NCBI GenBank assembly: GCA_024679065.1
Contig: JAGIQG010000008.1
Span: forward strand, 68,200,001 to 68,264,000
Direction of reading: 5' to 3'
Origin: Sphyrna mokarran
Taxonomy: Eukaryota
DNA length: 64,000 nt
Each line of letters opens with the position of its first letter. Position 1 is the first letter of the stretch. The notes beneath the pieces are model-generated. The model was given only the letters and a program-made list of their open reading frames with translations, had not been told where the DNA came from and did not search any database. Shown piece after piece: positions 1,113 through 64,000 of the stretch. A program made the translations under genes and the position numbers.

Positions 1113-1856
1113 TCTTGTTGCACTGCTGGACGATATTATTTGTGGGACTTTCTCTAGAAAGTAATGAACTCTAATAGGTATTTTGTATCATTGTGAATGG
1201 CCCTGTGGATATGAGTCATGTGTGAAATTTCTTTTCCTCACTGGAACTATTATCCTGCTGGCAGGTGTTTGGAAACGGGAATGATGGGTGTACAATAACT
1301 GAGCTGCATACTTGTGAATGAGGTGTTTCACAACTCATGGTGTTATTTTATGTCTGCTGGTGGGCCCACATGTCAAATGACGAATGTTGCATGTCATTAA
1401 AATGTATTTTTCATTTCCAGTGTTCATGAATTAAGTTATTCTTATTAAATACCAATTTAAAGCAATTTATAAAAATCAAGTAATTATTTTCAAAAAAGGG
1501 ACATAGCGTTATATGGCCTTGTTCAAGCATTGTTTTCATCTATTTTGCACTTGGATTTTTAATCCTTCATACTTAGCAACACTTGCATGAAAACAAATTT
1601 GATGCAAACTTTCAAGTGCAATGATAGGCTGCCTCTGTGATCTAATATGAATAGGGATATTAATCTGAATGGTACACATAGTCTCTTTCCAGATATCCTT
1701 CCCTTTCTAGCCTTCCAAATTTAAAAAAAAACTCCATTCTTAAAGTTGCAAAGCCAGTGCTCAGAATGGACCAGGCAATTGGAAATCCTTTCCTTGCTTG
1801 CTCCAAAAACCACATTCAAAATCCAATTAAGTCCAGTTCATAGTCTCTACAAGAGA

Positions 1857-1992
1857 TGATGCGGAGATGCTGGCTTTGACTAGGGTACACACAGGTTAAA
1901 GTCCAACAAGTTTATTTGGTAGCACAAACCACTAGCTTTCGGAACGCTGCCCATTCGTCAGGTGAGTGGGAATTCAATAACAGAACTGCCCG
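1857..1992 (-). mobile_element. Penelope-like element 3' terminal fragment
   Basis: Shares the terminus tgatg(c/t)ggagatgctggc...aaagtccaacaagtttatttggt with other copies; candidate TSD caagaga at 1850-1856 and 1993-1999. Confidence 0.75.
1930..1964 (-). ncRNA. Minimal type I hammerhead ribozyme motif (degenerate stem II)
   Basis: Minus strand reads cac-CTGACGA-atgggcagcgttcc-GAAA-gc-TA-gtg: stem I cac/gtg, core boxes present, palindromic AGCT stem III. Confidence 0.7.
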
Positions 1993-3039
1993 CAAGAGAG
2001 ACATACAAGATCCAAGCTGACAAGGTATTGCACCCCATCTCAGGCTTGATCCAACTGATACTTGATTTTAACCAAAAGACCAACATTCCATGCTGCCATT
2101 AGTAGGTAATGAAAAGTCTGGAGGGAATCCAGATTTAAGTGGACTATTTGTGCAAGGAAACTGCCTGTAAGGTTTACTGAAAGTGGAAAATGGAGCCCTC
2201 TTGAAGATTTGTTATCCTGCACTCAGAACTGGCACATCATTGGTTGGTCTATTTGTGAACGTTGTTCTGTTGGTATTACTGTGATTGACTGATAGGTTGG
2301 GACTAACATTTCTTACAATACTTCATTTAATAGCCGTAGCTCAAATAGACTTTATACAGCATGGAGAAAAGAATTCATTATAAACATCTGCTTCTACACG
2401 AATCACGACACTTCAAAGTATTGTGAATGGAACACTCCAGACATTTCAACATAATAACAGTATAAATGTACGCATTGTAGATTCACTGACTGCAATATTT
2501 AAATTCTATTAAAACTGTTCAGCATTTAATTGTTTCCTTTATTCTTTTCCTTCAGTCTGATAATTGCTTCAGAAAATGTTTAATATTTGACTGGAATTAT
2601 TATCAAATACACCAATGGGATATTTAACCCAGTTTTGCTGTATTTCATACCCTAACAATTAATAGTGTAACTCTCTCCATCTGTATATTTTAATACTGCC
2701 AAGCCCCCCTGTAATAACCTATTGTGTGTTTGCATGGTGAGATCTGTTCCCAGAACATCTTGCTGATCACAATTTCATTGAATAATATCCTCCTGCAATA
2801 GGCTTTGCTAAAGAGATGATGTGGCTGAGATGGGTTTTGCAGACAGTTAGACTATTGGAACAAAGGTTACTGACTTACACACACACTAAAGCCACACTGA
2901 CTGCAGCCACACTGCATCTTCTAATGTTATAAATGTGGTCTAACAGGGGGTTACAAAGCACTCCAGCACAGCATTTTGTTTTACCATTTTTAATGTTTGG
3001 CGCTTGCAATGAGAATATAGTAATTCATTCATACTTTGG

Positions 3040-5530: not shown

Positions 5531-6325
5531 AGAGACACTCTGATCTATTTGTATAAATGGAATGCCCCACAGAGAGAAATATAATATCTGCTATAGCTCT
5601 TTTGAGTTTTCTAAGTCAGCTTCCGTAGACGCTGCAATGCATACTCCAATACCAGCTAAAAGGGCAATTTTTTTTATAAATGTCACTGAAATATGAATCC
5701 ATATTGTTGCAGCATAAATTATGCAGTGTATTCGCACTTCTGTAGAAGCTATGTAGTGCAAATGCACTGCAGTATGAGTTACTTGGGGAAATCACACTCT
5801 AACATCAGTTATGCAGTGTAATAACACTACAGTTGGAGTTTCATAACAGATGCATCTTGTCCGGAAACTTGACAAATTTTCATAAAACGATGAAAGCTGT
5901 ATGTACTATCTGGAATAACGCATATTTTCTGAATGGCCTCAAAGCTGCATGTTTCCCTCCCTGCATGGTGTTCCCAAACTGCCAGCATAAGCAACATCCT
6001 GCTGACTTGCTTTGCACTCCACAGCTATACTCTTCTCTGCCAGAGCTGTGGAATGCTGTTAAAGCTGCAATTACTGTACCTTTTGAAGTGCCTAAATGTT
6101 TCAAACCTCTTGTTTAATGGGTATGTAAGTATGGATGGGGGTGGGTGAGGAGGAGGAGCGGGCTTGGTGACAGTGACTCAATCTCCCTGAATGGAAAAAG
6201 GCTGTGCGTATTGAATTCTACTGCAATTAATGACCTCTTGGTAGGAATGATGCCACATAGGATTGTCAACTCTGGAAAACCTATTCTTGGTGGTTTCATC
6301 ACGTAGCCCTGTAGCTCCAACTCAC

Positions 6326-6512
6326 GATGTAGAGATGCTGGCGTTGGACTGGGGTAAACTCAGTAAAGTTTTACAACACCAATTTTAAATCCAACCAATT
6401 TATTTGATAGTAAATTCACGAGCTTTCCGAAGGCTATAAAGTCGAAAGCTCGCGAATTTACTATAAAATAAATTGGTTGGATTTAAAATTGGTGTTGTAA
6501 AACTTTACTGAG
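6326..6512 (-). mobile_element. Penelope-type mini-insertion with 70-bp inverted repeat
   Basis: Arms 6358-6427 and 6444-6513 (2 mismatches); TSD tccaactcac at 6316-6325 and 6513-6522; same terminus as other copies. Confidence 0.85.
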
Positions 6513-7619
6513 TCCAACTCACACACAGCCATAGAACTTTTTCCTCACTTTTTAATGCTGCAGTGATTTTTTTCCCCGGGTTGTTTGTGAGAAATAAATG
6601 TTTAATACTTAGATGATTGACAGCTGTTATAGAAATCAGGCTCATTATTTGCTCTAACTGCTATCTATGTTTCATTTTTCTAGCTGTCAACAGGGAAAAT
6701 TTACCTATGGAATTTAGCAGCTTAAAACTAAAATGTTAGCTTTCTGAGAAAAGCATACATTTTTACATTAGTGATTTTAAAACTTGTTGTGAAAGTAGTA
6801 GCATTGAGGGTTCATTATGTATATAATGTTTTGGGAGATAGAAGTATTTACAGTAGCTGAACATTCAGGCTTGATTCAAAAATGCACAGTGCTGGTGATC
6901 ATACATTTTGGGGAATTTTGAAGAATGTACAGTACTGATGGTAATACTGATGTTTCTGATTCGAATTCATGAAATAAAGATTGATACTTTATTTTGTTGT
7001 GAGAGGTATGAAAGGCATTTATTTAACTCCTAGTTAGATTGGAGCTCCTTTTATAAATTGAAAAGCTGCATTCAAATGAGGTAGTTAATAACGAGAAGCA
7101 AATCTCCAATACAATCTTGTGTTGCCTAGCACTGCAGAGAAATAGAGTTCCCCAGCAGGGTCTAGTGTTTTTAGTGTCAGTGCAGGGTGAGAAATGGGAA
7201 GATTTCCATGATCTCATGCTTGCTATTCATTAAGAATTGTTTCTGTTCCCTGTTATCTCTGGCCAAGTACATTTGAAGAACTAGAGACTATGCTGGTTGA
7301 ACAGGCCAATTGTGACTGTAACAATGCAAGAGGCATGAGTTGTTCTTAATGTGGCATGCTGTAGGCATTTAGCCATGAGAGCAAAATTATTGTTTTGACG
7401 TCAAATGTGGATAAAGCAAACTAATTGGTGCCTCTTGAAGGGCCTGAGATCCAGTTTGACCCCACACAACCAACAATAATCATTATTGTGAGACACACTA
7501 TATCATGTCACTGAATTTGATAATTTATCACGTTGCATTCAAGTTTATATTTGGATGCTGTGGTGGCAAAGTATGTATTGATTATCATTATTTATTAATT
7601 CATTTAATTTTATCTTGGA

Positions 7620-10996: not shown

Positions 10997-11023
10997 GATG
11001 ATATCCTTTCTTCCTTTTCCTAG

Positions 11024-11124
11024 GTGAAAATATTAATGTTGGTGATGCACTCTGTGAAATTGAAACGGACAAAGCTGTGGTTACCTTGGACTCCAGCGAT
11101 GATGGCGTACTAGCAAAAATCATG
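11024..11124 (+). CDS. PDHX: Internal exon of pyruvate dehydrogenase complex component X (E3-binding protein), lipoyl domain
   Basis: Acceptor cctttcttccttttcctag|GT and donor ATG|gtaaga. The 101 bp translate as (G)[33 protein letters not shown], matching the PDHX motif [25 protein letters not shown] (DLAT instead has AEVETDKATVGFE). Lipoyl-Lys codon AAA is at 11071-11073. Missed by the ORF track because it is a short exon. Confidence 0.93.
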
Positions 11125-13074
11125 GTAAGAACATTAATTTCAGGTCAAGCGAGTCATTCATCATCTACCCTCCTCCACAATGGTAAATAGATACCAGTTT
11201 AATTCAACGTTGTGTAGCAGAACCAAAACAAGGATGTGAAAATTGAAGGCAGAGTTATATTTCTCAGCAGCTGTTGGTAGAATAGAATTGGCAGAGTTTG
11301 ATCCATGTGGAAATCAGCCGCTGGTTAAATTGCGAGGAATTGGTGAAGGAAAGTGTGCTGAAGAGGTATGCCTGTCAATTCTGATATTACCATTGTTTTT
11401 TTGTTCTGTCTTTATGTGCAATCTGTATCAACAAGATTTGTATTCTGGTTCTGGGATTTATGAGGAACTTCAATTAGAAAAGTGAAAATAAGTGCATGTT
11501 TCATGAAACGAGCAGCCATTTTCATGAACTTCAGAAGATTAGTGGTTTTCGTGCATGTTATCAGAGATAGTAGCTGAAAAATCCTTTCATCAGTCAAGAT
11601 TTTGCAGATAAACGTGTGCTGTGTAGTAGACCTTGTTCTGATTTGTGTTTTTTCATGGCTTTGGTTACATGGTCCGACACTACTTAATTTATTTCTCATT
11701 AATTTGTCTGTCTACTCATGTTACCCTGCACTTTAATTAAATGGAGTTACCAATAGTTTTTAATGACATCTATAGACGTTAGTAATATTCATAAGATTAA
11801 CAGTAATGTGTTCAGCACCCTCTTGAATTTTCCATCTGTAAATTGATTATATTGACTTTATTTTACCTGGCATTTCATTGATAATTGGGGGAAATTACTA
11901 TTATATCATATCCTATGTAAAGACTTATTGAATTTATTCCAGTTCTGAAAGCTCTTAACCTCAAGTGCTTGAAAGTAAAAGTTAACAATGTGTACTACAA
12001 AATCAAAGCTTTATTGGTATATTGATCTATGAATCTCAATCATTAACTAAATGTGTAAGGAACCTCCATATACCCTGTAGGAAACTAATTCATAACATGA
12101 GAAATATCAATAAAAATCTGTGTAAAATGATGGCATAATTGCTGTGAGAATTTATTCTAAATTTCTGGCAGGTTCTCCAGTGCTGATGCTTGTAGGAACT
12201 ACTAATGTAAACAATGAATTGACTGCATATTTCAATACTTCAATGAAGAACTCCGCTTTATATAGTGTGATACAGATCAGGAGGTTCCCCGGTTAGCTTT
12301 CTACCATTGTCTTTCTATTTTTCTGTTTCTTTGTTGTGTTGACTGGCCCAGATTTTTCCTTGCAAATGCAAAAAACAAATTTCTGGTTGATGTATTTCAG
12401 AACATCAAATAACTGTATTGGTGATTTTTTCTTAATATATTAACAATCTCCTGCATGCTTTTCCTGAGTACAAATCCATATTTTCTTTTGTCACACTTTT
12501 ATATCACTGTTTTTGATTTTTAACTCCTGCCTTCTATTTATAATGAAACTAGATTATTTAATTTAACCCTCTCAGTAACAGTGCCATGCGGTACCTCCAT
12601 TTAGCATTTGCTAAATGGAGTTCTTCATTCCTTGCTGTATAGAAACAATGCTGCGAGCAATTGCAGAATCCCACTTCCCTAATGATGTATGAAATCAAAA
12701 TGAAAACTGAACTAAATTCATTTATCATGTACCAAAAGGCAATCTTGAAAATGATACTTGGTGTAGAATGCTTGTGTAGAAGGTTGCAGAAAAATCAGCT
12801 ATTTTGTCAGAATTTAGAGATCGGGACTCTTCATTACTGTCTTCTAGTTTTTACTTAGTATAAGAATTAAGAGACTAGTTTAATGGAGTTTGAAATGTAA
12901 AATATTTGATATTTATGAATGAACTTTTAACCATTCATATAAATTGTAAAGAATCAAGAATTGTTGTTTGGTTTTGATCTGTTGACTTTTTGAGGCTGCA
13001 TTTCAACCCAGTTCCCCCCAGTTTAAAACAGTATATTTCTTGTGTGCAAAGTTAAAAATGTAAGAGGTTATTCT

Positions 13075-23899: not shown

Positions 23900-25000
23900 T
23901 CTGTCATAGGAAAAACAGTAGAAGCTATTATTAAAGGTGATACCTAACAGAGCATTTAGAAAAATCAAAGGTTATTGCAGAAAATAATAGCTCATGGTAG
24001 GAGGTAACCTACTGGATTGAAGATTAGCTACCTAACAGAAAACAGAGTTGGCATAAATAGATCTTTTTTTGGTTGGCAGATTGTGATGGGTAGTGGGGCC
24101 TCAACATTTTATAATTTATATAAAAGACTTGTTTGAATTTGCTGATGATACAAAAATATGTAGGAAAGTAAATTGTGAAGGGGATGTAAGGTCGTCATGG
24201 GAAAAAAATCTGGTAAATGGAGTATAACGTGGGTAAATGTGAAATTGCCCATTTTATTAGGAAGAATCAAAAACTTTACAATCTAAATGATGAGAGATTG
24301 CAGAGAGATGTGTGTTCTCATGCATGAATCACAAAAGTCTCGTATACCGATGCAGCAAGTTATTAGCAATGAGTAATTAGCAATAGAATGTTGTTGTTAT
24401 TTTGTGAAGGGAATTAATTACAAAGGTAGGGAGGTTATGCTTCAGTTGTACAGGGCATTGGTGAGACCACATCTAAAATATTGTATACATTATCAGTCTC
24501 CTTGTTAAAGAAAATGCATTAGAAATATTTAAGAGAATGTTAATTAGATTAATACTAAGAATAGGCAGGTTGCCTTATGAGGAAAGGTCTGTATCCATTT
24601 AGAGTTTTGAAGAATAAGAGGCAAACTGATTGAAACATACAAGATCCTAACAGTTCATGACAAGGTGAATGTGGAGACAATGTTTCCTCTTTTCGGAGAA
24701 TCTAGAACTAGAGGTTACTGTTTAAAAACCAGGAGTTGCTCACTTAAGGTAGTGATGAGGGGAACTTATTTTTCTCATGGGTTGTGAGTCTCTGGAACTG
24801 TCTTCCACGGAAGGCAGTGCAGGCAGAGTCTTTGAATATTTTAAGGCAAAGCTGAATAGATTTTTGATTAACAAGAGGATAAAAGTTCATTGGAGATAGA
24901 CAGAAATGTGGGGTTGAGATTATAATCAGATCAACGTGAACTTATCAAATAATGGAGGAAATTTGAGGGGCTGAGTGGCCTTCTCATTTTACAATTCAGA
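23900..25000 (+). mobile_element. Old degenerate CR1 ORF2 3' half
   Basis: FADDTK, LVRPHL and CR1 3'UTR remnants. Confidence 0.75.
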
Positions 25001-25085: not shown

Positions 25086-25173
25086 AGACTTAAACCTGGT
25101 TGGACTTAAACCTAGTATTGTCAGACTCCTTCATGTATTTACCCCAGTCTAACACTAGCATCTTCTCATCATA
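25086..25173 (+). mobile_element. Penelope-type 3' terminal fragment
   Basis: taaacctggttggacttaaacct...accccagtctaacactagcatcttctcatcat; candidate TSD aagtcc. Confidence 0.6.
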
Positions 25174-32782: not shown

Positions 32783-34350
32783 AACATAGAACATAGAACA
32801 TAGAACAATACAGCACAGAACAGGCCCTTCGGCCCTCGATGTTGTGCCGACCAAAATAAAAAGCAATGCCCCTCCTAACTAAACCATTCCCTTCTCATCC
32901 ATATACTTATCAACTAACCTCTTAAACGCCACCAAACTTGGCGCATCCACAACAGCTGCAGGCAGGGCCTTCCACTCCCTAATCACTCTTTGAGTAAAGA
33001 ACCTACCTCTGATATCCGTCCTATAACTCATACCCCTTAATTTAAAGTTGTGTCCCCTCGTGCTAGCTTTCTCCATCCTAGGAAAAAGGCTATCACTGTC
33101 CACACTATCCAAACCTCTAATCATCTTATATGCTTCAATAAGATCCCCTCTTAGCCGCCTCCTTTCTAACGAAAACAACCTCAAATCCTTCAACATCTCT
33201 TCATAGGACCTGCCCTCCATACCAGGCAACATCCTGGTAAACCTCCTCTGTACCCTCTCCAATGCCTCCACATCTTCTTATAATGTGGGGACCAGAACTG
33301 CACACAATACTCCAAGTGCGGCCGCACTAGAGTTTTGTACAGCTGCAACATGATGATGCGGCTCCTAAATTCAATCCCCCTACCAATAAAAGCTAAGACT
33401 CCATAAGCCTTCTTAACAACTTTATCCACTTGACTGCCTACTTTCAGGGATCTATGACACATACACCAAGATCCTTCTGTTCCTCAACACTATTAAGAGC
33501 CCTACCATTAGCCCTATACTCTACACATTTATTGTTCCTGACAAAGTGCATTACCTCACACTTTTCCACATTAAACTCCATTTGCCACCTCTCGGCCCAG
33601 CTCTGAAACTTGTCCAAGTCACTCTGTAAACTAAAACACCCCTCTTCACTATCTACCACACCACCAACTTTAGTATCATCTGCAAATTTACTGATCCATC
33701 CCTCAATACCTCATCCAGATCATTTATAAAAATTACAAACAGCAGGGGCCCCAAAACAGACCCCTGAGGCACACCACTCGTCACCGAACTCCACGAAGAA
33801 AATCTCCCATCAACCACCACCCTCTGTGGTAATGCAGACAATTACAATCCATTCGATCAAATATCTGCCACTTGTATGAATTTAATATATGATAGATAAC
33901 AAACATATCTCCATAAGCCTCCATAAGCCTTCTTAACAACTTTATCCACTTGACTGCCTACTTTCAGGGATCTATTGACACATACACCAAGATCCTTCTG
34001 TTCCTCAACACTATTAAGAGCCCTACCATTAGCCCTATACTCTACACATTTATTGGTCCTGCCAAAGTGCATTACCTCACACTTTTCCACATTAAACTCC
34101 ATTTGCCACCTCTCGGCCCAGCTCTGCAACTTGTCCAAGTCACTCTGTAAACTAAAAACACCCCTCTTCACTATCTACCACACCACCAACTTTAGTATCA
34201 TCTGCAAATTTACTGATCCATCCCTCAATACCCTCATCCAGATCATTTATAAAAATTACAAACAGCAGGGGCCCCAAAACAGACCCCTGAGGCACACCAC
34301 TCGTCACCGAACTCCACGAAGAAAATCTCCCATCAACCACCACCCTCTGT
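32783..34350 (-). mobile_element. Young CR1, 5'-truncated, partly tandem-duplicated
   Basis: [38 protein letters not shown]; (aacatag)n tail at 32783-32808. Confidence 0.93.
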
Positions 34351-34431
34351 GGTAATGCAGACAATTACAATCCATTCGATCAAATATCTGCCACTTGTAT
34401 GAATTTAATATATGATAGATAACAAACATAT
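33399..34431. repeat. ~510-bp tandem duplication (33399-33908 and 33919-34431)
   Basis: Near-identical units with an extra ctccataagc decamer at the junction. Confidence 0.9.
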
Positions 34432-34434
34432 GTC

Positions 34435-46000: not shown

Positions 46001-47352
46001 TTTATGAGCATTTAGAGAAATTCAATATGATCAGGAATAGTCAACACGGCTTTGTTAAGAGCAGATCATGCCTTACGAGCCTAGTTGAATTCTTCGAAAA
46101 TGTGACTGAACACATTGATGAAGGAAGAGCAATGGACATGGTTTACATGGATTTCAGCAAGGCGTTTGATAAGGTCCCCTATGCAAGACTTCTTGAGAAG
46201 GAGAGAGGGCATGGGATCGAAGGGACTTTGGCCTTGTGGATCCAGAACTGGCTTGCCTGCAGAAGGCAGAGAGTAGTTGTGGATGGGTCTTCTTCTGTAT
46301 GGAGGTCGGTCACCAGTGGAGTGCCCTAGGGATCTGTTCTAGGACCTTTGCTGTTTGTCATTTTCATAAATGACCTGGATGAGGAAGTGGAGGGATGGGT
46401 TAGTAAGTTTGCCGATGATACGAAGGTCGGTGGTGTTGTGGATAGTCTGGAGGAATGTCTGAAGTTGCAGCGAGACATAGGATGCAAGACTGGGCGGAAA
46501 AGTGGCAGATAGACTTCAACGCAGATAAATGTGTGGTGGTCCATTTTGGCAGGAACAATGGGATGAAGCAGTATAATATCATGGGTAGGAGTCTTGGCAG
46601 TATTGAGGAGCAGAAGAATCTTGGCGTCCAGGTCCATAGGTCTCTTAAATCTGCCCCGCAAGTGGAGGATGTGGTCAAGAAGGCATATGGTGTACTGGCC
46701 TTCATTAATAGAGGAATTGAGTTTAGGAGTCAGGAGGTAATGCTGCAACTTTATAAGACCTTGTCAGACCCCACTTGGAGTATCGTGTGCAGTTCTGGTC
46801 GCCTCACTATAGGAAGGATGTGGAAGCTATTGAGAGGGTGCAGAGGAGATTTACAAGGATATTGCCTGGATTGGGGGGCATGAAGATAGGTTGAGAGAGC
46901 TAGGCCTCTTCTCCCTGGAGAGACGAAGGTTGAGAGGCAACCTGATAGAGGTTTATAAGATGTTGAGAGGAATAGATAGAGTGGATTCTCAGAGGCTATT
47001 TCCCAGGGCTGAAATGGTCGCTACGAGAGGACACAGGTTTAATGTGCTGGGGGGCAAGTACAGAGGAGATGTTAGAGGTAAGTTTTTCACTCAGAGGGTG
47101 GTGAGTGAATGGAATCGATTGCCATCAGTGGTGGTAGAAGCGAACTCGCTGGGGTCTTTTAAAAGACTTCTGGATGAGTACATGGGATTTAATGGGATTG
47201 GGAGTTACAGATAGGTCTATGGCCTGGTAAGTACTGATATGATCGGCACAACTTGTGGGCCGAAGGGCCTGTTTGTGCTGTAGTGTTCTATGTTCTATTA
47301 TCTTATTGAAAGGTGGAGCAGGCTTGAGTGGCCACATGTTCCTAGTTCTTAT
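43079..47352 (+). mobile_element. CR1 ORF2 (endonuclease plus RT), degenerate: 43079-45771, with the 3'UTR end at 47298-47352
   Basis: IMGDFN, LDLVL, QHGFMKGRLCLTN, YLDFQRA, PQGSKLGPQLF motifs. Confidence 0.88.
45772..47297 (+). mobile_element. Younger CR1, 5'-truncated, inserted into the 3'UTR of the previous CR1
   Basis: ORF 45718-46329 RT (NYRPVSLTSVVSKLME, YMDFSKAFDKV); tail tgttctatgttcta; atctt repeated near both junctions. Confidence 0.92.
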
Positions 47353-52810: not shown

Positions 52811-52986
52811 GTAACAACAAAGCTAACCTACCCAACCCTCAGAGACTGTGGAGGTGAGTGATCCATGTACATTGAGAGAATAGAAAGGTTTACAATAAAG
52901 TGATCACTGTTATGTTCCTACATTAAGCCTTAGCCAAAACTTGGGGTGATAATACACAGCCAGAGGAAATTGCAGGAGGAGCAAAA

Positions 52987-53026
52987 ATTGCTTCTCGGAC
53001 TTTTGGCTAAGATCAAGTGTAGTATC
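52987..53026 (+). pseudogene. U2 snRNA 5' fragment (nt 1-40)
   Basis: attgcttctcggacttttggctaagatcaagtgtagtatc versus U2 ATCGCTTCTCGGCCTTTTGGCTAAGATCAAGTGTAGTATC: 38/40 identical, includes GTAGTA; no Sm site or 3' domain. Confidence 0.9.
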
Positions 53027-53288
53027 GACATGTAATGCTTTGTTGAAGTCATTAGGTTACATTTTAGCTTCATTTGAAGCAATTTTTAAAAACGACATCT
53101 TGGCCTTTTGGCTAAAATGCAGATGAGACTCAGCCTTGGAGGAGGAGCTATGCCTACTCCAATCAGTTTGGAATATGTAGGTCAAGCCTAAGACAGGAAG
53201 TGAGAGTCCTGTCTTGTCAGCTTGGATCGGGAATGTCTCAACTTGTTGAGACCCTGAATTGCATTTGATTTGATTGAATTGGAATAAA
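52987..53288 (+). mobile_element. Candidate U2-headed SINE-like element
   Basis: Two U2 5' fragments, three hairpins, (ttga)-rich tail; flanking direct repeat agcaaaaat (52980-52988, 53289-53297). Confidence 0.6.
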
Positions 53289-55699
53289 AGCAAAAATAAA
53301 TCCGTCAAGATATGTCTGTGTTACATGGCAATATAAAATATCTAATATATCTATGTAACAAAGTGAAATTTAATATCATTAATCATTGAAATTATGCTTT
53401 CACCTATGATATTCATTATCCAAAGAAAATTAAAAACTAACATTTAAAACTGCCACATCAATTTTGAACTGTACCCCCACTCTGTCACCCCAGGACAAGA
53501 ACTATCCTTTCCATATTTGGTTACTAGCCTGACCTCAGGCTATTCTATGTCACTCCTTGCTTGAGAAAAATATGAATATCACAGTGTTTGCTAATGTGAA
53601 GTACTATCCCTAAAAAGCACTTTGGTAATCTCATGCCCTAATTACTCACTGGACATTACCTACACTCCAACTGCAATTTACAACTGGAACTTTTGTGTGG
53701 CATCTGCTAAAGGTTTCTCTCTCGAAGAAACTTTGATTCCTGTCCCTTCTTCTTACAGGACGAGCACTTTAGTACTGTGTGTTGGGTTCTTGACATTCAA
53801 AGCTGAATGTAGATAATTGCATACTGTTACATCTTTCACTTGCTCATTTCTACACAAGCAAACGTCATGGTTCACAACTTAAATGAATGTAAACACTGTT
53901 TGAAGACCTGCAACCAATGACTTAGCAAATATTCTTCATGGAGCCAGCAGTTCATTGGTGCACAGTGTGTGTTTTGGACCTGAACCAGCCCACACCCTTA
54001 AAGGTGGAATTGGAAAACTTGGGAATGGAGTCAGAAATCCCAGCACTGGGTCCCAACCACCATCTTAAAAGGATTCCTAAGTCATCCCAATCAGTGAAAA
54101 TCCATGACATAATCTCAGGATAATGGGGTGACCATTTTCACACTCGAAAAGGCAATAAATATCTTTCCTCTATACCAGAAGACTATATATGCCCAGTTAA
54201 TGAATACATTCAAACTGAGATTAATCGATCATTGGACACTATGGGGATCAAAGAAAATAAGAATACTGGGGATAAGTTGGGAGATCAGCCATGATCTTTT
54301 AATGGGAGAGCAAGTTCGAAGAACGTATCCTTGCGCTCACTCCTTTTGTTCTTATGCCTGTCAATGGTTCATAAGCCTGGTTAGAAATTAGAGTAACATT
54401 CACTCCATCTGTCACAGCAGTGTATGGTTATGTAGGTTTAACATTAACCATTGAAGGATCATGTTAGACTTGATTCATTAACTCTGTTTCACTGTCTCTC
54501 CATTGATGTGGCCAAGACTGGCAGAGTTTTTCCAGTAATTTCTGATCTTATTTCAGATTTCCAACAACTCCAGTATCTTATTAAAATCATCTAAGATCAT
54601 ATTGAATGACAGGAAAGTCTTGAAGAGTCAAAAAGCCTGCTCCTGCACCGTTTTTTTATGTCCCCAAAACAGTGAGTTTGAACAGAGAGCATCATATAGC
54701 ATATTATGTGGCAAAGGTTAAGCAGGAACATGCAGGGAATTACTTGGTTCAAGTCCTCCTTTGGCTGAAATCTAGTGCTAGGACCCATCTACAGAAGCAA
54801 TTTGCTGTTTAGGTTTGACCTCCTACTAGTTCATTTGAAAGTGCCCAAAGCACACTGTAAGGTGTGGGTACATGTGTAGGGGAGTTTTCTGGAATGGTTT
54901 GGTCAAGTAATCTGCATCCATACCAGTATCTGAAGCAAAGTTGCAGAGGTTCAAAGTACAGTTTCAGTAGCTCTGTTTGCTATATTAGAGGCTGCCAGTT
55001 CCAAACAGCTTCTCTTGCTGGCAAAATGATCAAGAGCCAATATACAGGACTTCACTGCCATTGTTACAGTTCAGAGATCTACTCCAGAGCATTCAGTCGT
55101 TACTGAATCATCATCTAGGATGCAATTTCTCACACTCTTGCATATTTACTGGCAACTCCAGCCTTGAATATTGCTGGCCACTCCTTGTGTATGAGATAGT
55201 TATTAAGGATAAAGTAGAGTGAATACTATTGAAGTTTCAGTGTATTGTGTCCTAGGAGCTAAAGCATTTTGATTATTTGAGATTGTGAAAAGCTGACAGG
55301 ATTGAATAGTTGTGGGACAGTAATAACGAAAGCAATTACCGAGATTTTGATATCAAAATGAGGTCATAAGTCAATGTAAAATGCTTCCATAGATTGTACA
55401 GCTGTCTTTCACACTGGAACAACAGTAGCCGGGTGGCCTATTCCTGCTCCGAATTTATATGTATATATAAGGCTTTAATATTCTTTTCATCACCTGGTTG
55501 TTTAGATCACTTCCATAAATAATAACACAGTGATGTTTGAATTACTGTGTTCTCTGCAATTTTTAGTGGCAACATCAAAACAGGCTTGGTGGAAAACTGA
55601 GTAGATTTGTATCTACTCAGGCTTTATTCCTTCAGCTGAGTATCAATTGAATTGTACGTTGATAGATTTGAAATACAATAGATGTGGCGACAATAAACA

Positions 55700-57545
55700 T
55701 CCTAAACTCCCCATATTAACCAATATTCTGGAGGTTACCAGTGACCAGAAACTGAACTGCACTAATCATATCAATACTGTGATTACAAGAACAGATCAGA
55801 GAATGTGAATTCAGTACACAGTAACTCACCACCTGACTCCCCAGAGCCTGTTCAAGATACAAATCAGGAGTGTTACGGAATATTCTCCACTTATCTGGCT
55901 GAATGCAACTCCAGTAATACTCAAAGAATTGGACATCATTCAGGTGAAAGAAGCCTGCTTTGATTGACATCCTTTTCACAAACTATTATTTCTATGATTC
56001 TAACCACTCATTCCGATGCCACCAGCAAACATTGGCAGTAATGTACACCATTTACAAAATGCATGCAGGAATTCGCCAGGGACCCTTAGGCAGCACCTTC
56101 CAAACCACAACCACTACCATCCAGACAGACAAGCAGCAGATACCTGGGAATACCAACGTTTGGAGATTCCCTACAAATCATTCACCATCCTGACTTGGAA
56201 ATATGTCACCATTCTTTCATTGCCTCTGGTTCAAAATCCTGGAATTCCCTCCTTAACCACTGTGGGTGTACCTACAACACATGGACTGCAGGGATTCAAC
56301 AAGGCAGCTCATCACCATTTTATTGAGGGCAATTAGAACATAGAACATTACAGCGCAGAACAGGCCCTTCGGCCTTCGATGTTGCGCCGACCAATTAGGA
56401 AAAAGCAATGACCCTCTAACCTAAACCATTCCTTTTTCATCCATAAACTTATCTACTAACCTCTTAAACGCCACCAAACTTGGCGCATCTACAACTGCAA
56501 CAGGCAGGGCATTCCATACCCTTACCACCCTCTGTGTAAAGAACCTACCTCTGACATCTGTCCTATAACTACCACCCCTTAATTTAAAGCTATGTCCCCT
56601 TGTGCTAGCTTTCTCCATCTGAGGAAAAAAGCTATCACTGTCCACCCTATCTAAACCTCTAATCATATATGTTTCAATAAGGTCTCCTCTTAGCTGCCTT
56701 CTTTCTAACAAAAACAACATCAAATCCCTCAGCCTCTCTTCATAAGATCTGCCCTCCATACCAGACAACATCCTGGTAAACCTCCTCTGTACCCTCTCCA
56801 ATGCCTACACATCTTTCTTATAATGTGGGGACCAGAACTGTACACAATACTCCAAGTGTGGCCGCACTAAAGTTTTGTACAGTCGCAACATGACGTTGCG
56901 GCTCCGAAATTCAATCCCTCTACCAATAAAAGCTAAGACTCCGTATGCCTTCTTAACAAGCTTATCGACTTGATTGCCAACTTTCAGGGATCTATGCATA
57001 TATACACCAAGATCCCTCTGTTCATCAACAATATTAAGAGTCCTACCATTAGCCCTATACTCTACACATTTGTTATTCCTGCCAAAGTGAATTACTTCAC
57101 ACTTTTCCGCATTAAACTCCATTTGCCACCTCTCGGCCCAGCTCTGCAACTTGTCCAAGTCTCTCTGCAAACTATAACACCCCTCTTCACTATCTACCAC
57201 TCCTCCGACTTTGGTGTCATCCCCAAATTTACTAATCCATCCTTCAATACCCTCATCCAGATCATTTATAAAAATTACAAACAGCAGGGGCCCCAAAACA
57301 GATCCCTGAGGTACACCACTTGTAACCGAACTCCACTATGAATAACTTCCATCAACCACCACCCTCTGTCTTCTATCTGCTAGCCAATTCCTAATCCAAT
57401 TAGCTAAATCACCCTCAATCCCATACATCTGCATTTTCTGCAGAAGCCTTCCATGGGGCACCTTATTGAACGCCTTACTAAAGGGATGGGCAACAAATGC
57501 TGGCCTGACCAATGATGCTTATAACCCATGAAAGAATAAAAGGAA
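55700..57545 (+). mobile_element. CR1/L2-type (second family) 3' region, split by the CR1 at 56336-57481
   Basis: Tail gagggcaattag at ~56335 resumes as gggatgggcaacaaatgctggcc at ~57483. Confidence 0.8.
56336..57481 (-). mobile_element. Young CR1, 5'-truncated (same family as 32783 and 63565)
   Basis: ORFs 56421-56801 and 56805-57296 are nearly intact RT C-terminus; aacatagaac tail. Confidence 0.93.
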
Positions 57546-58376
57546 TGCAACAGTGTACTCCATTTTTGTTTTCTGTGTGCTCTTGTTGCCACTAGTGACC
57601 AGCAGTATCTCCAGAGAAATAATGTAAATGACTGTATCATGGTGGAGAATCTAGATGGATAGTCCCACTTGGAGTAAGGACTGGGATGTGGGTGCTGGGG
57701 TCCTGCCTACTGCAGAATGCATGTTAAGCTTTCTCTGTTTAGGTGGCATTAGTTGGATTGTCAAAACTACTGCCCATCATGATCTGCCTACCATGCATAC
57801 TTCTGATAGATGTTTTTAACGATAGCGCTAACAAGTGCCTTCAGTAAAGTTGTACTAAAAGTGCTGAAAGTATTAGAGAACGGATGCCATTTTAGCATTT
57901 GAATGGCACCAAAACTATGAATACTGCAGCAATATTAAATAGAGCACATTGTTGAACAGGCAATGTTGCACATGCAGTATATTGGCTACATCTTTCAGCC
58001 ATTAATTTGACTATATTTTGCCATTTCAACCCATTATTGAAATAAATGAACAGCAAACCCATTATAAAAATTTCAGAATCTTGATTTTGATGTATATTAA
58101 AGTTGTGCTGATATGATCAGAATATTATGTACATGCGAACCAATGATGCCTGCCATTTTGCTAGTTAGATAAATAGAAAAGAGTTCAATTTGCAGGGCTA
58201 AAGAACTTTCCTCCCATTCTTTCAGAGGGAATTATTTCAAATCTAAGTAGGACTATCTGCACAGTTGTGTTGGTGGGAAGCTGCTGATAGAGTCAGAGAA
58301 AGAGGGAACCAACATGAGAAAATAATCTTTCTGTTACCAGAATTACCTGATACAAGCATATCTGTCCACAATAATA

Positions 58377-58529
58377 TGATGTGGAGATGCTGGCATTGGT
58401 TTGGGTAAGCACAGTAAGAAGTCTCATAACACCAGATTAAAGTCCAACAGATTTATTTGGTGCCACAAGTTTGTGTGACCAAATAAACCTGTTGGATTTT
58501 AACCTGGTGTTGTAAGACCTCTTACTGTG
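58377..58529 (-). mobile_element. Penelope-type mini-insertion with 52-bp imperfect inverted repeat
   Basis: tgatgtggagatgctggc terminus; arms 58410-58461 and 58478-58529. Confidence 0.8.
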
Positions 58530-60768
58530 GTCCATAGGTAGGCGTGACTCTTCTTCAATATTATTATGAAGACAGATGCCCTGATTTTAAGGGAGCAGGA
58601 GTTGAACAGGCAGAAGCCAAATGAACCGACTTCACCATGGCAGCATAAAGCAAGATTTTAATTTCCAGCTTTCTGTCTGAAACTGGTAGAAAGTTGAGCT
58701 GATCAGATAGGATAATGTTGGGTAGCTGGGGACCATCCAGGAGGAAGCCAATCCTCTGGAATGTCAATTGGGGTGGGAGTAGGGAATGCGTGAGCAATCT
58801 AGCATAGGGACAACCTCAACTTTCCTAATGCGGCCAAGTTGAACAGTCCTGCCCTCTTGGTCCCAGATTTCTCCCCTTCAATTTGTTTAGTGGGCATCCT
58901 TTTTGGGCCTCTTGTTTAAAATAACAATTATGTTCAAAAGGTATGGCAGGACCTGTAAATAATCCTGGTGAGCTATCCTCGGAGTCTAATTTAACAGAGA
59001 AGTAAAGGCCAGTTTGTACCCAGTTAAGAAAATAACTGCAAGAGAGCAGAGAGCCAGTCAACTATTAATGATCCTGAAATTCTGTGAGGTTCCCGTGGTC
59101 TGCTACAGTAACACCACCAGAGATCGGCATCACCTCCACAGAAATAATATTAGTGATTGAGTTACGGTGGAGACACTTAAAGAATTTACAATTTGTTAAA
59201 ACCAAACCCATCCTTCACAGAACTCTACGTTGTTGATATTTAGAATCCTATAACCAGACTCCATCTGCCAGTTTTTTTTACCTCAATTATAAATGTTCAT
59301 GTCTGTTTATTTTAAGAAGAAAATAGATTTCTGGACTCTAGATTCTAAAGGTGTCAAGGGGTATGGGGAGAACAACGGAGTATGGCTATGAGATGGATGA
59401 TGAGCCTTGATCATATTGAATAGTGGAGCAGGTTAGAAAGGCCAAATAGCCTACTACTGATTTCTATATTTCTCCAGTTGTCTTGGGGACAGTTTGGGGT
59501 CATGCTCCCAAAGCCTCAATCAATATCGTATGGAAACTCCCATCAGAAAATATGCAAGGGTGGTTTGCAGTGACTTACTCTGTGATCCCTCCTTGTTGCG
59601 AAGTATTGCTTGTCTGACACTGAATAGCTTTTGAAATACTCCTATGCTGTAGATGATAGACACAAAACTTGAGTCCTGCCCTTTCCCAGGCACAGAGTGC
59701 CTTGTCTCCAAAACATTCTGCTACTTAAGTTCTTAGAGTGATTTTCTCGTAGATTTAGTGGGGATAAGGAAAGGATTTGTCATAAAAAGTACCTATATTT
59801 AGTTTTCAAACCTGGAGATAAATGAGAGCGGATGTTAACAACAAAATAATGAACTATTTCATTTAACTAATCTTAAAAATAGGATTTTCGTCAGAGAAAG
59901 CTGAGATTGTTTGCGCTAAAAGGAACAGTGTTGCAATTTGTTGAAAAGCTCCCTAGGGCTCCAATTGCTGAATAACCCAGCTGTTGAATTGCACTCTGTG
60001 ATAATTCTCCAGCTTTGGAACCGTGCTAAGAATCCTGAATAACATCACTGAGTGTAGGTAGTGTGTGCTGTTGACAAACAAGGCTGAGACACAGTAAATG
60101 GGGATGGAGTGATACATTCTCATCACTGCTCTGCAGTGAGTAAAAATTCTCTCGCTAAAAGAAAGGAATAATTTAACCAGACCAAGGGCCAAATCTTGGT
60201 CAGCAATGATCTATTAATTCCTCTGTTACTAATGTTGAGCTCAGTGTGATTGGCACCCTTCCAGAAGGGAGAGAATTATTAGTATTAATTCATTTGTATC
60301 TAAGACCAATGTCTGAGTCACTGTGATAAAATTATGTTTGTTAGTTATGTAGTAAGAATGATACCAGTATTTAGGAATGTTAATGATCAGCAGACACTGA
60401 ACAGGCTAAGATTGTTCTTCCTCCCTGTCAGAGTGAATGCTGAGGAGTGATAAAGCTTTTTGAAATGATGAAAGGGTTATCGAGAAGATGCTTCCATCTG
60501 AAAGGGACCAGAACTAGAGCTTGTGAACGTTAACAAGAGGCAGCACAGTCACTCAGCGTTTAGCACTGCTGGCTCACAGCTCCACTGACCCAGGTTCAAT
60601 TCTGACATCTAGTGACTGTCTCTTTGGAGTTTGCATGTTCCTTCCATATCTGGGTTGATTTCCTCCCATTTTCCAAAGATGTGCTGGTTAAGTGGATTGG
60701 TTATGCTAAATTAGTAAGAATTTAGCAACACTAATTTTTAATCCAACCGATTTATTTGATAGTAAAAT

Positions 60769-60803
60769 TGCGAGCTTTCAACACTCTGTGTCTTCCTCAG
60801 GCA
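60769..60803 (-). ncRNA. Minimal type I hammerhead ribozyme motif (inverted copy)
   Basis: Exact reverse complement of 60811-60845. Confidence 0.8.
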
Positions 60804-60810
60804 AATGCAG

Positions 60811-60845
60811 TGCCTGAGGAAGACACAGAGTGTTGAAAGCTCGCA
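60811..60845 (+). ncRNA. Minimal type I hammerhead ribozyme motif
   Basis: tgc-CTGAGGA-a-gacac aga gtgtt-GAAA-gc-TC-gca: stem I tgc/gca, stem II gacac/gtgtt, palindromic AGCT stem III, UC cleavage site. Confidence 0.8.
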
Positions 60846-61949
60846 ATTTTACTATCAAATAAATCGGTTGGATTAAAAATTGGTGTTGTTAAATTCTTAC
60901 TGAGTTCTTACCACCCCAATCCAACGCCGGCATCTTTACATTATGCTAAATTACCCATTAGTGTCTCAAGATGGATTAGATTAGATGGATTAACAATGGG
61001 AAATGTGTAGGGTTATGGCGTAGAAGGCTTGGGTAAGATGCTCTGTCAGAGAGTTGGTACAGGCACAATGGGCCAAATGGCTTCTTCTGCGCTGTCGGGA
61101 TTCTATGAAAACGCCAGGAATTGAGAAGAAATGTCTTCCTCGAGAGCAGTTACAATGTGGTACTCGCTATGACAGTCATTTAGGTCTCTGATTTAGATGC
61201 ATTTAAGGAAAAACAGAGTAAGTCTACCAGGGAAAAAAAATAAAAGATGTGCTAGTAGGGTTAGATGAGTTAAAGTGGGAGGGGGCTCATGTGGAGCATA
61301 AGAATGTGTGGTGCTGTCCTGGATTTTATTCTCACACCTCATCATTGATGGTTTTATCGGGGTGGCTGAACCAACTCCTGAAATGCTGGAGGCCAGAATT
61401 CATCTTATTGACTTTAAATCTCTCCTGCAACAACCTTCAGTGAGAATGAGAAGTCACTGTGGGAGTAATTATACCTACTGACTTGCTGAATGCAAGGCAT
61501 TGTGTTGATAAGTACATGCATTACTTGTCAATGCCATCTCATTATGGGGGATTGATAGTGGTTAGCTGTGAAGTGGCCATCTTAATGAACCCTGGTAGAT
61601 GAACAATGACCAATGCTAAAAGAAAAAAATGTATAAAACAAACATGAGAACAGAAAACATTGGAAATGTACAGATTTGGCTATTGTGCCTGACACCTCCA
61701 AATAAAGAGAGTGGTACAATGTAAAGTATGGAGTGTGTGGAAAATGGCCCAATCTATTTCTCTCCAGCAATTTCACCAGTTTTCCACGTTTGCCCTGATG
61801 AGTTTGTGAATCATTAATCTTTTTTTCAGACATGGACTGGCTTTTTTTGTTTATCTTGTTTTTATAAAATTTGAAAGATTCAGCACAAGGTTGGGTGAAG
61901 AGTGCTGCACAGTTTTATTTTCAAAGAGCCAATCAATGAAATTTAAAAC

Positions 61950-63564: not shown

Positions 63565-64000
63565 TATAGGAAGAGGCATTGGAGAGGGTACAGAGGAGGT
63601 TTACCAGATGTTGCCTGGTATGGAGGGCAGGTCTTATGAGGAGAGGCTGAGGGATTTGAGGTTGTTTTCGTTAGAAAGGAGGCGGCTAAGAGGAGACCTT
63701 ATCAAAACATATAAGATGATTAGAGGTTTAGATAGGGTGGACAGTGATAGCCTTTTTCCTAGTTTGGAGAAAGCTAGCACGAGGGGACACAGCTTTAAAT
63801 TAAGGGGTGATAGTTATAGGACGGATATCAGAGGTAGGTTCTTTACCCAGAGTGTGGTTAGGGAGTGGAATGCCCTGCCTGCGGCAGTTGTAGATGCGCC
63901 AAGTTTGGTGGCGTTTAAGAGGTTAGTTGATGAGTTTATGGAAGAGAAGGGAATGGTTTAGTTTGGAGGGTCATTGCTTTTTTCATAATTGGTCGGCGCA
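63565..64000 (+). mobile_element. Young CR1 3' end (runs off the window)
   Basis: ORF 63608-63961 is near-identical to 32879-33271 and 56421-56801. Confidence 0.93.

Follow-up and report, generated by a model that had tools for sequence, protein, structure and literature searches.

The 64-kb window (the whole stretch of DNA that was analysed) contains one PDHX exon, located at 11023-11127 on the plus strand and belonging to the lipoyl domain. All of its residues (35/35) are identical to residues 72-106 of PDHX from Mustelus asterias, and this 35-residue exon shows 94% identity to PDHX from several other sharks; the host is thus a shark, in agreement with the cartilaginous fish proposed in the original prediction. 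No second PDHX exon was found within the window, and the intron located 3′ of the lipoyl exon would exceed 52 kb (no PDHX exon in 11128-64000). The present analysis identified two related elements that start with a piece of U2 snRNA: a unit of about 300 nt on the plus strand (hereafter the long unit) and a shorter, interrupted copy on the minus strand (hereafter copy 2). We infer that both are intronic in PDHX, the long unit in sense and copy 2 in antisense orientation, because the next PDHX exon is absent from the window. The sense orientation claimed earlier for the long unit agrees with that of the single exon (plus strand).

The long unit begins with a U2 snRNA head (nt 1-40; 52987-53026, plus strand) that is absent from copy 2. 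The Rfam U2 model matches it from model position 1 (44.3 bits, slightly below the Rfam gathering score of 46 bits; E 2.8e-7), and a count by eye against the human U2 line given in S1 Fig of PMC4640811 yields 38 identities out of 40, with mismatches at nt 3 and nt 13, which reproduces the extent and identity originally claimed for this fragment. The head ends at U2 nt 40, i.e., 2 nt beyond the cut site (38|39) published for Keno and Utopia elements. No separate duplication marks the end of the head at nt 40; the flanking repeat encloses head and body together. This 9-nt direct repeat (agcaaaaat, 9/9) is found at 52980-52988, where it overlaps the head by 2 nt (U2 nt 1-2), and at 53289-53297, so the target-site duplication described previously is exact at both ends. 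Direct repeats of at least 9 nt occurred by chance in 16 of 3000 random zones, and the flanking 9-mer occurs four times in the window, both strands counted. Since a single duplication encloses the whole unit, its retroposition as one piece, as first proposed, is supported, and we hold with good confidence that the long form was inserted in this way.

The head is followed by a 70-nt linker (53027-53096, plus strand) that is absent from copy 2 and has no distinct second match anywhere in the window. A perfect 12-nt inverted repeat relates linker positions 53076-53087 to the left junction (52983-52994), where 4 nt belong to the flank and 8 nt to the start of the U2 head; such an inverted repeat is present in 3 of 199 tiles of 320 nt. 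Beyond the linker lies an older U2 piece (nt 6-27; 53097-53118, plus strand), which matches copy 2 and heads what we consider below as the family core. For this second fragment, the earlier count of 19/21 identities with human U2 (53098-53118) was obtained again by eye, compared to 18/21 with the young head; alone, it gives a weak Rfam U2 match (model 9-24, E 9.1). The remainder of the body, also on the plus strand, comprises (i) hairpin module A (53131-53183), which aligns to the module of copy 2 (score 29, attained by 0/1500 random windows), (ii) hairpin module B (53181-53227), a long stem-loop shared with copy 2 (score 53, 0/1500), (iii) the terminal hairpin 3 (53235-53252; 7 pairs), also shared with copy 2, and (iv) an AT-rich tail devoid of poly(A) (53253-53288), common to copy 2 up to about 53282. 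By eye, 53162-53176 resembles U2 nt 48-60 with a 2-nt insertion.

The repeated frame noticed earlier around the first two hairpins is visible in a three-way alignment. Since modules A and B each match copy 2, module A is likely, from its sequence, a duplicate of the family hairpin module; a direct local alignment of A against B returned only their 10-nt overlap. The whole long unit folds better than 100 out of 100 shuffles (z -2.87). Hairpins 2 and 3 together give z -4.17, with 2 of 200 shuffles equally good, whereas hairpin 1 alone is at chance level (z -0.05; 86/200). The folding signal of the unit therefore comes from hairpins 2 and 3 and, among the three hairpins initially listed, only these two fold beyond shuffles.

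The second, colinear copy is located on the minus strand at 2086-1799, 51 kb from the long unit; a BLAST search of the window with the long-unit region as query (word size 7) matches it at 1998-2086 (minus strand). Its 5′ part (1993-2086) carries the U2 piece, U2 nt 47-54, one hairpin module and the 5′ arm of hairpin 3, and its 3′ part (1799-1849) carries the 3′ arm of hairpin 3 and the tail, for a length of 145 nt without the nested repeat that separates them. With U2 positions numbered by eye on the published U2 line, copy 2 starts with nt 6-31 (20/26 identities) and passes directly to nt 47-54; because nt 31 is joined to nt 47, the branch-point-pairing hexamer is lost. With E values up to 10 admitted, the Rfam U2 model has no match in copy 2. 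A candidate 8-nt duplication (7/8) flanks this copy at 2087-2094, where it abuts the first homologous base, and at 1791-1798 (both minus strand); its chance expectation is about 0.018 in a 30-nt zone for a repeat that was picked after looking. AGCA starts the duplications of both insertions (52980-52983, plus strand; 2094-2091, minus strand) and could possibly be a shared target or priming motif. A motif resembling an Sm site is present in the tail of copy 2 (1823-1817, minus strand) and has no equivalent in the long unit.

The repeat that interrupts copy 2 (1850-1992, minus strand; 143 nt) is unrelated to it and is bracketed by a 7-nt duplication (1999-1993 and 1856-1850). It has six further matches in the window (E up to 0.16), and its relatives include 6324-6447, 58375-58507, 60738-60941 and 25101-25172. 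Head-to-head pairs of this repeat form long hairpins (6348-6524, 60723-60998 and 58432-58509); Rfam microRNA matches on these pairs are under the gathering score and were rejected as spurious. We take the nested repeat to resemble the terminal repeats of Penelope-like elements, with a decayed hammerhead-like core, for which a motif scan gave no passing match. Minimal hammerheads have been described in fish Penelope-like elements (PMC4209133).

Leaving out the nested repeat, 106 of 131 aligned columns are identical between the long unit and copy 2. Four segments of the long unit align in order to copy 2 and each outscores all 1500 random windows, including the older U2 piece against 2086-2065 (minus strand; score 33, 0/1500) and the tail (53242-53282) against 1853-1810 (minus strand; score 39, 0/1500). 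Furthermore, a 24-base two-part pattern from module B matches only there and at 2009-2049, with no match in 100 shuffles. Both copies thus share the same order (older U2 piece, hairpin module, terminal hairpin, tail), and the long unit has in addition a second hairpin module, the 70-nt linker and the U2 1-40 head. No alignment was obtained between the flanks of the two copies, which are bordered by different duplications (9/9 for the long unit, a 7/8 candidate for copy 2). The body could have been single-copy or could have occurred apart from U2; it is neither, since a second, diverged copy lies in the same window and here too follows a U2 5′ piece. The tail alignment shows a shared 3′ end. 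Copy 2 starts at U2 nt 6, without the 1-40 head.

At U2 positions 6, 10 and 25, the older piece of the long unit and copy 2 agree with each other against both the young head and human U2. These three common non-U2 substitutions argue for a single ancestor and not for two independent captures of U2, the substitution at position 10 weighing less because it is a CpG site. It is therefore likely, on sequence grounds, that both copies derive from a single master of about 145 nt, whose head was a U2 5′ end that had already diverged. The family core of about 145 nt would likely start at the second U2 piece, and the 300-nt unit would be a derived long form. Hence, the original view of the unit of about 300 bp as the family unit is retained for the shared core and abandoned for the head, linker and extra module, which copy 2 does not have. 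The young head is closer to U2 than the piece of the core (38/40 compared to 19/22, by eye against human U2) and, judged by this divergence, is younger. As to the GUAGUA branch-point-pairing sequence (U2 nt 33-38), it was rightly reported for the young head but is absent from the older U2 piece in both copies; it is not a feature of the family core.

Secondary structure adds little to this relationship. The long stem is present in both copies (8/9 and 9/9 pairs), as is a predicted 5-pair closing stem, and hairpin 3 of copy 2 has six predicted pairs once the nested repeat is omitted. However, the shared stem is nearly invariant over the three aligned rows, too few to reveal covariation, with a single two-sided swap beside a loop indel, and the core of copy 2 folds at chance level (z -1.03; 27/200 shuffles as good). 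Since the stems hardly vary and copy 2 folds at chance, structure conservation is weak evidence.

A profile built from both copies revealed no convincing third copy in the window. The match at 24630-24723 was rejected as a LINE fragment whose E value was beaten in 1 of 20 shuffles, and those at 54758, 29437 and 13687 (E 1.3-4.4) are at shuffle level. Body patterns gave no match in metagenome contigs, viral contigs and prokaryote genomes, which, being non-shark DNA, are uninformative on this point. A 16-base pattern was found at no fewer than 119 loci of the metagenome contigs in 32 of 64 parts (estimated total about 240), also non-shark DNA, and was discarded since none of the matches extended: the best of the 119 loci has 9/17 downstream bases, and the 6-base upstream frame occurs in 3/119. 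Among sequencing runs, 22 share sequence words with the query, one of them more than half of the words and none of those listed being RNA; the small shares of the other 21 carry no weight as evidence. One extra copy per 64 kb implies a density of 16 copies per Mb (95% range 0.4-87), assuming an even spread. We consider it quite likely that the two copies belong to a dispersed family.

Signals for transcription (PSE, octamer, Sm site, 3′ box, box A and box B) were scored against consensus motifs. Upstream of the long unit, a PSE-like match (52924-52939, plus strand; 3/13 positions mismatched) lies at -63 to -48 from U2 nt 1, an agreement expected by chance with a probability of about 0.006 in a 9-nt zone; two of its three mismatches fall in the 5′ core. 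No octamer was found within about 340 nt upstream of the head with one mismatch allowed, no 3′ box at up to two mismatches, and no PSE-like match upstream of copy 2 at three mismatches. An antisense U2 look-alike (52916-52946, minus strand; nhmmer E 3; 77% over 22 nt) is located 40 nt upstream of the unit. Since it overlaps the PSE-like match, at most one of these two readings is meaningful, and the PSE-like match may be due to chance. The long unit is not a full-length U2 snRNA gene: its match of 44.3 bits is driven by nt 1-40, it has no Sm site, and no U2 match was found downstream of it at E up to 10. Neither copy has an exact Pol III box A or box B; one-mismatch box B look-alikes occur in both, runs of at least four T are found four times in the long unit and three times in copy 2, and no Pol III promoter is convincing in either. 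No tRNA was found in the window by ARAGORN, and the long unit has no open reading frame, with stops in all three sense frames. Both AT-rich tails have a longest A run of at most 5.

Short elements with an snRNA head are known as SINEUs, which the cited passages of Kojima 2015 (PMC4494074) report from crocodilians and from no other group. According to the same passages, SINEU subfamilies grew by repeated 5′ addition of U1 or U2 pieces and by partial duplication, have no Pol III promoter, carry a poly(A) tail in all groups and were likely moved by Tx1 elements; their transcription was left open. The shark elements resemble this group by their U2-derived 5′ head in both copies, their small size (about 300 and 145 nt) without coding capacity, their target-site duplications, the absence of exact Pol III boxes and the internal T-runs, but they lack a 3′ poly(A) tail. 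As in SINEU-1, a short U2-derived 5′ end is placed on a non-U2 body, the whole being under 500 nt, newer forms seem to arise by a fresh 5′ snRNA piece and partial duplication, the duplications are near 10 nt, and T-runs occur with neither a Pol III promoter nor a partner LINE tail found. Unlike SINEU-1 as described there, the shark unit has no poly(A), and neither a U1 piece nor a Mariner target was seen. In SINEU-3, a U2 5′ end of about 32 nt is joined to later U2, just as copy 2 joins nt 31 to nt 47; however, SINEU-3 keeps 83 nt of middle U2 compared to 8-13 nt in the shark core, whose body is mostly not recognisable as U2. Because of the missing poly(A), and because the comparison concerns build and not body sequence, we do not file the unit under SINEU; in our best reading it works like SINEU and is likely of separate origin.

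Insertion of the retrotransposons Keno (Tx1 clade) and Utopia leaves a 3′ flank whose first U2 base is nt 39 (PMC4640811), the upstream U2 portion being given as 37 nt in the corresponding passage of PMC6136364. The shark head, ending at nt 40, stops within 2 nt of this insertion site. They are, however, autonomous elements, kilobases in length, with U2 from nt 39 on their 3′ side; the long unit was rejected as a Keno or a Utopia since it has neither a reverse transcriptase-endonuclease frame nor such downstream U2. Tailless U2 retropseudogenes and snRNA-LINE chimeras (as presented in the passages of PMC5322556 and PMC4494074) also show 3′-truncated U2 from nt 1 beside a duplication, but in the shark a single duplication encloses the head along with the body, which is itself found again in copy 2. 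Internal priming, independently of Keno, may also produce U2 fragments that stop close to nt 40 (the PMC5322556 passages give no U2 breakpoint position).

Other short non-autonomous retroposons are found in sharks and chimaeras. HE1 is a chondrichthyan SINE with a tRNA head. CmiSINEs and SacSINE1 also have tRNA heads with A and B boxes, together with L2 tails, and the word “snRNA” is absent from the text of the paper describing them (PMC5499810). The long unit was rejected as a tRNA-headed shark SINE, as no tRNA was detected by ARAGORN and no tRNA-derived head with A and B boxes is present. In the open-licence literature searched, mostly judged by title and the start of the abstract, no paper on a U2-headed SINE in sharks or rays was found. 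The family looks undescribed in this literature and may exist under an automatic name in Repbase or Dfam.

Our preferred explanation, which we consider slightly better than evenly probable, is a non-autonomous retroposon from a U2-headed family, copied from RNA and inserted whole by LINE enzymes. An internally deleted U2 5′ end (nt 6-31 and 47-54) would have been fused to the hairpin body, giving the master of about 145 nt. A later master would have gained a fresh head, most likely after a copy had landed inside a U2 gene, at the Keno/Utopia site (38|39) or beside it, and read-through by Pol II from the upstream promoter of the U2 gene would have produced an RNA starting at U2 nt 1. Target-primed reverse transcription would have copied this RNA right up to its first base and placed it at the present locus, the 3′ hairpins possibly serving as a handle for the LINE protein. 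The present copy would have probably lost its promoter and would be a passenger in the PDHX intron. A master lodged in a U2 gene is the simplest single account of a head that runs from nt 1 to nt 40 at the Keno/Utopia site, and the existence of such a separate master for the long form is a little favoured. The most likely partner is a LINE of Tx1/L1 type and, with somewhat less than even probability, of Tx1/Keno type, given the head-end junction near the cut site and the SINEU precedent; a search of the window for the tail of such a partner gave none, the best scores against nine LINE stretches (36 and 31) being within the range of random tiles. Counting against the family are the number of copies (only two, both from one window) and the single long form; counting against insertion at a random site is the location of the PSE-like match at the canonical snRNA-gene distance.

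Among the alternatives, the core could be a family and the long form a one-off chimera, the reverse transcriptase having jumped from the element RNA to U2 snRNA and copied it from nt 40 to nt 1. Such a template jump fits nearly as well as a long-form master, since copy 2 has neither head nor linker, 5′ additions in SINEU-2 are described as many separate events (PMC4494074), and the 12-nt inversion of the left junction within the linker could be a local by-product. Nevertheless, a single jump leaves the module duplication and the 70-nt non-U2 linker unexplained and does not predict a junction within 2 nt of a published U2-targeting site (Keno/Utopia), so that we regard this scenario as somewhat unlikely. 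We consider it rather improbable that the body, instead of being a separate SINE-like family, represents an autonomous or already annotated LINE of the Keno/Tx1 type, either its 3′ end alone or a version with an internal deletion. Copy 2 has a short antisense likeness to 24630-24660, presumably a CR1-type fragment, but its score (36) compares with 32 for the next of 121 tiles, and one of 20 shuffles gave a better E value than its 0.036. A U2 head is present in Tx1-11_Crp according to the cited part of PMC4494074; however, both shark copies start in a U2 piece instead of extending into LINE sequence, U2 from nt 39 follows neither of them, in contrast to Keno and Utopia copies, and three body motifs are absent from 10 Utopia supplements.

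The long unit could also be a variant or decayed snRNA-type gene at its own promoter, flanked by the 9-nt repeat by chance. Consistent with this reading are the location of the PSE-like match (-63 to -48; chance about 0.006), the U2 sequence starting from nt 1 with its branch-point-pairing hexamer kept, and the good fold. It would, however, be a gene devoid of octamer, Sm site, 3′ box and the remaining U2 downstream; the 9-nt repeat at both ends is equally improbable by chance, and copy 2 has no PSE-like match, which makes such a gene very improbable. Finally, the presence of both copies inside one 64-kb window could reflect a local DNA-level duplication near PDHX rather than a dispersed family. 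This is extremely improbable, since the homology ends at the element ends, the flanks are unrelated, the strands are opposite and the copies have separate duplications.

If the retroposon family that we favour does exist in sharks, with a SINEU build but another tail, a second origin is likely, and SINE-like elements would then be able to arise repeatedly through U2 capture. Whether promoters are borrowed from U2 genes can be tested concretely on the head, which runs from nt 1 to the Keno site. If the density estimated above holds, the family would be a source of presence/absence markers for the phylogeny of sharks, and annotations of their genomes would contain too many U2 genes. We also put forward, while considering it unlikely, an abundant shark family, apart from that of crocodilians, that hijacks the U2 Pol II promoter at the Keno cut site and yields a capped chimeric RNA of 300 nt with the branch-point-pairing sequence, the copy with the PSE-like element being maybe itself transcribed. 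If true, such a hijack would give a testable answer on the transcription of snRNA-headed SINEs as well as a natural U2 mimic.

The window also contains LINE fragments with reverse-transcriptase-like frames (32794-33827, 56334-57369, 63573-64000 and 46153-47298), up to 91% alike, which we take to be of CR1/L2 type. Inside a LINE fragment lies a tandem duplication of approximately 520 nt (33394-33911 and 33914-34434; 98.5% identity), which is either a recent duplication or an assembly artefact.
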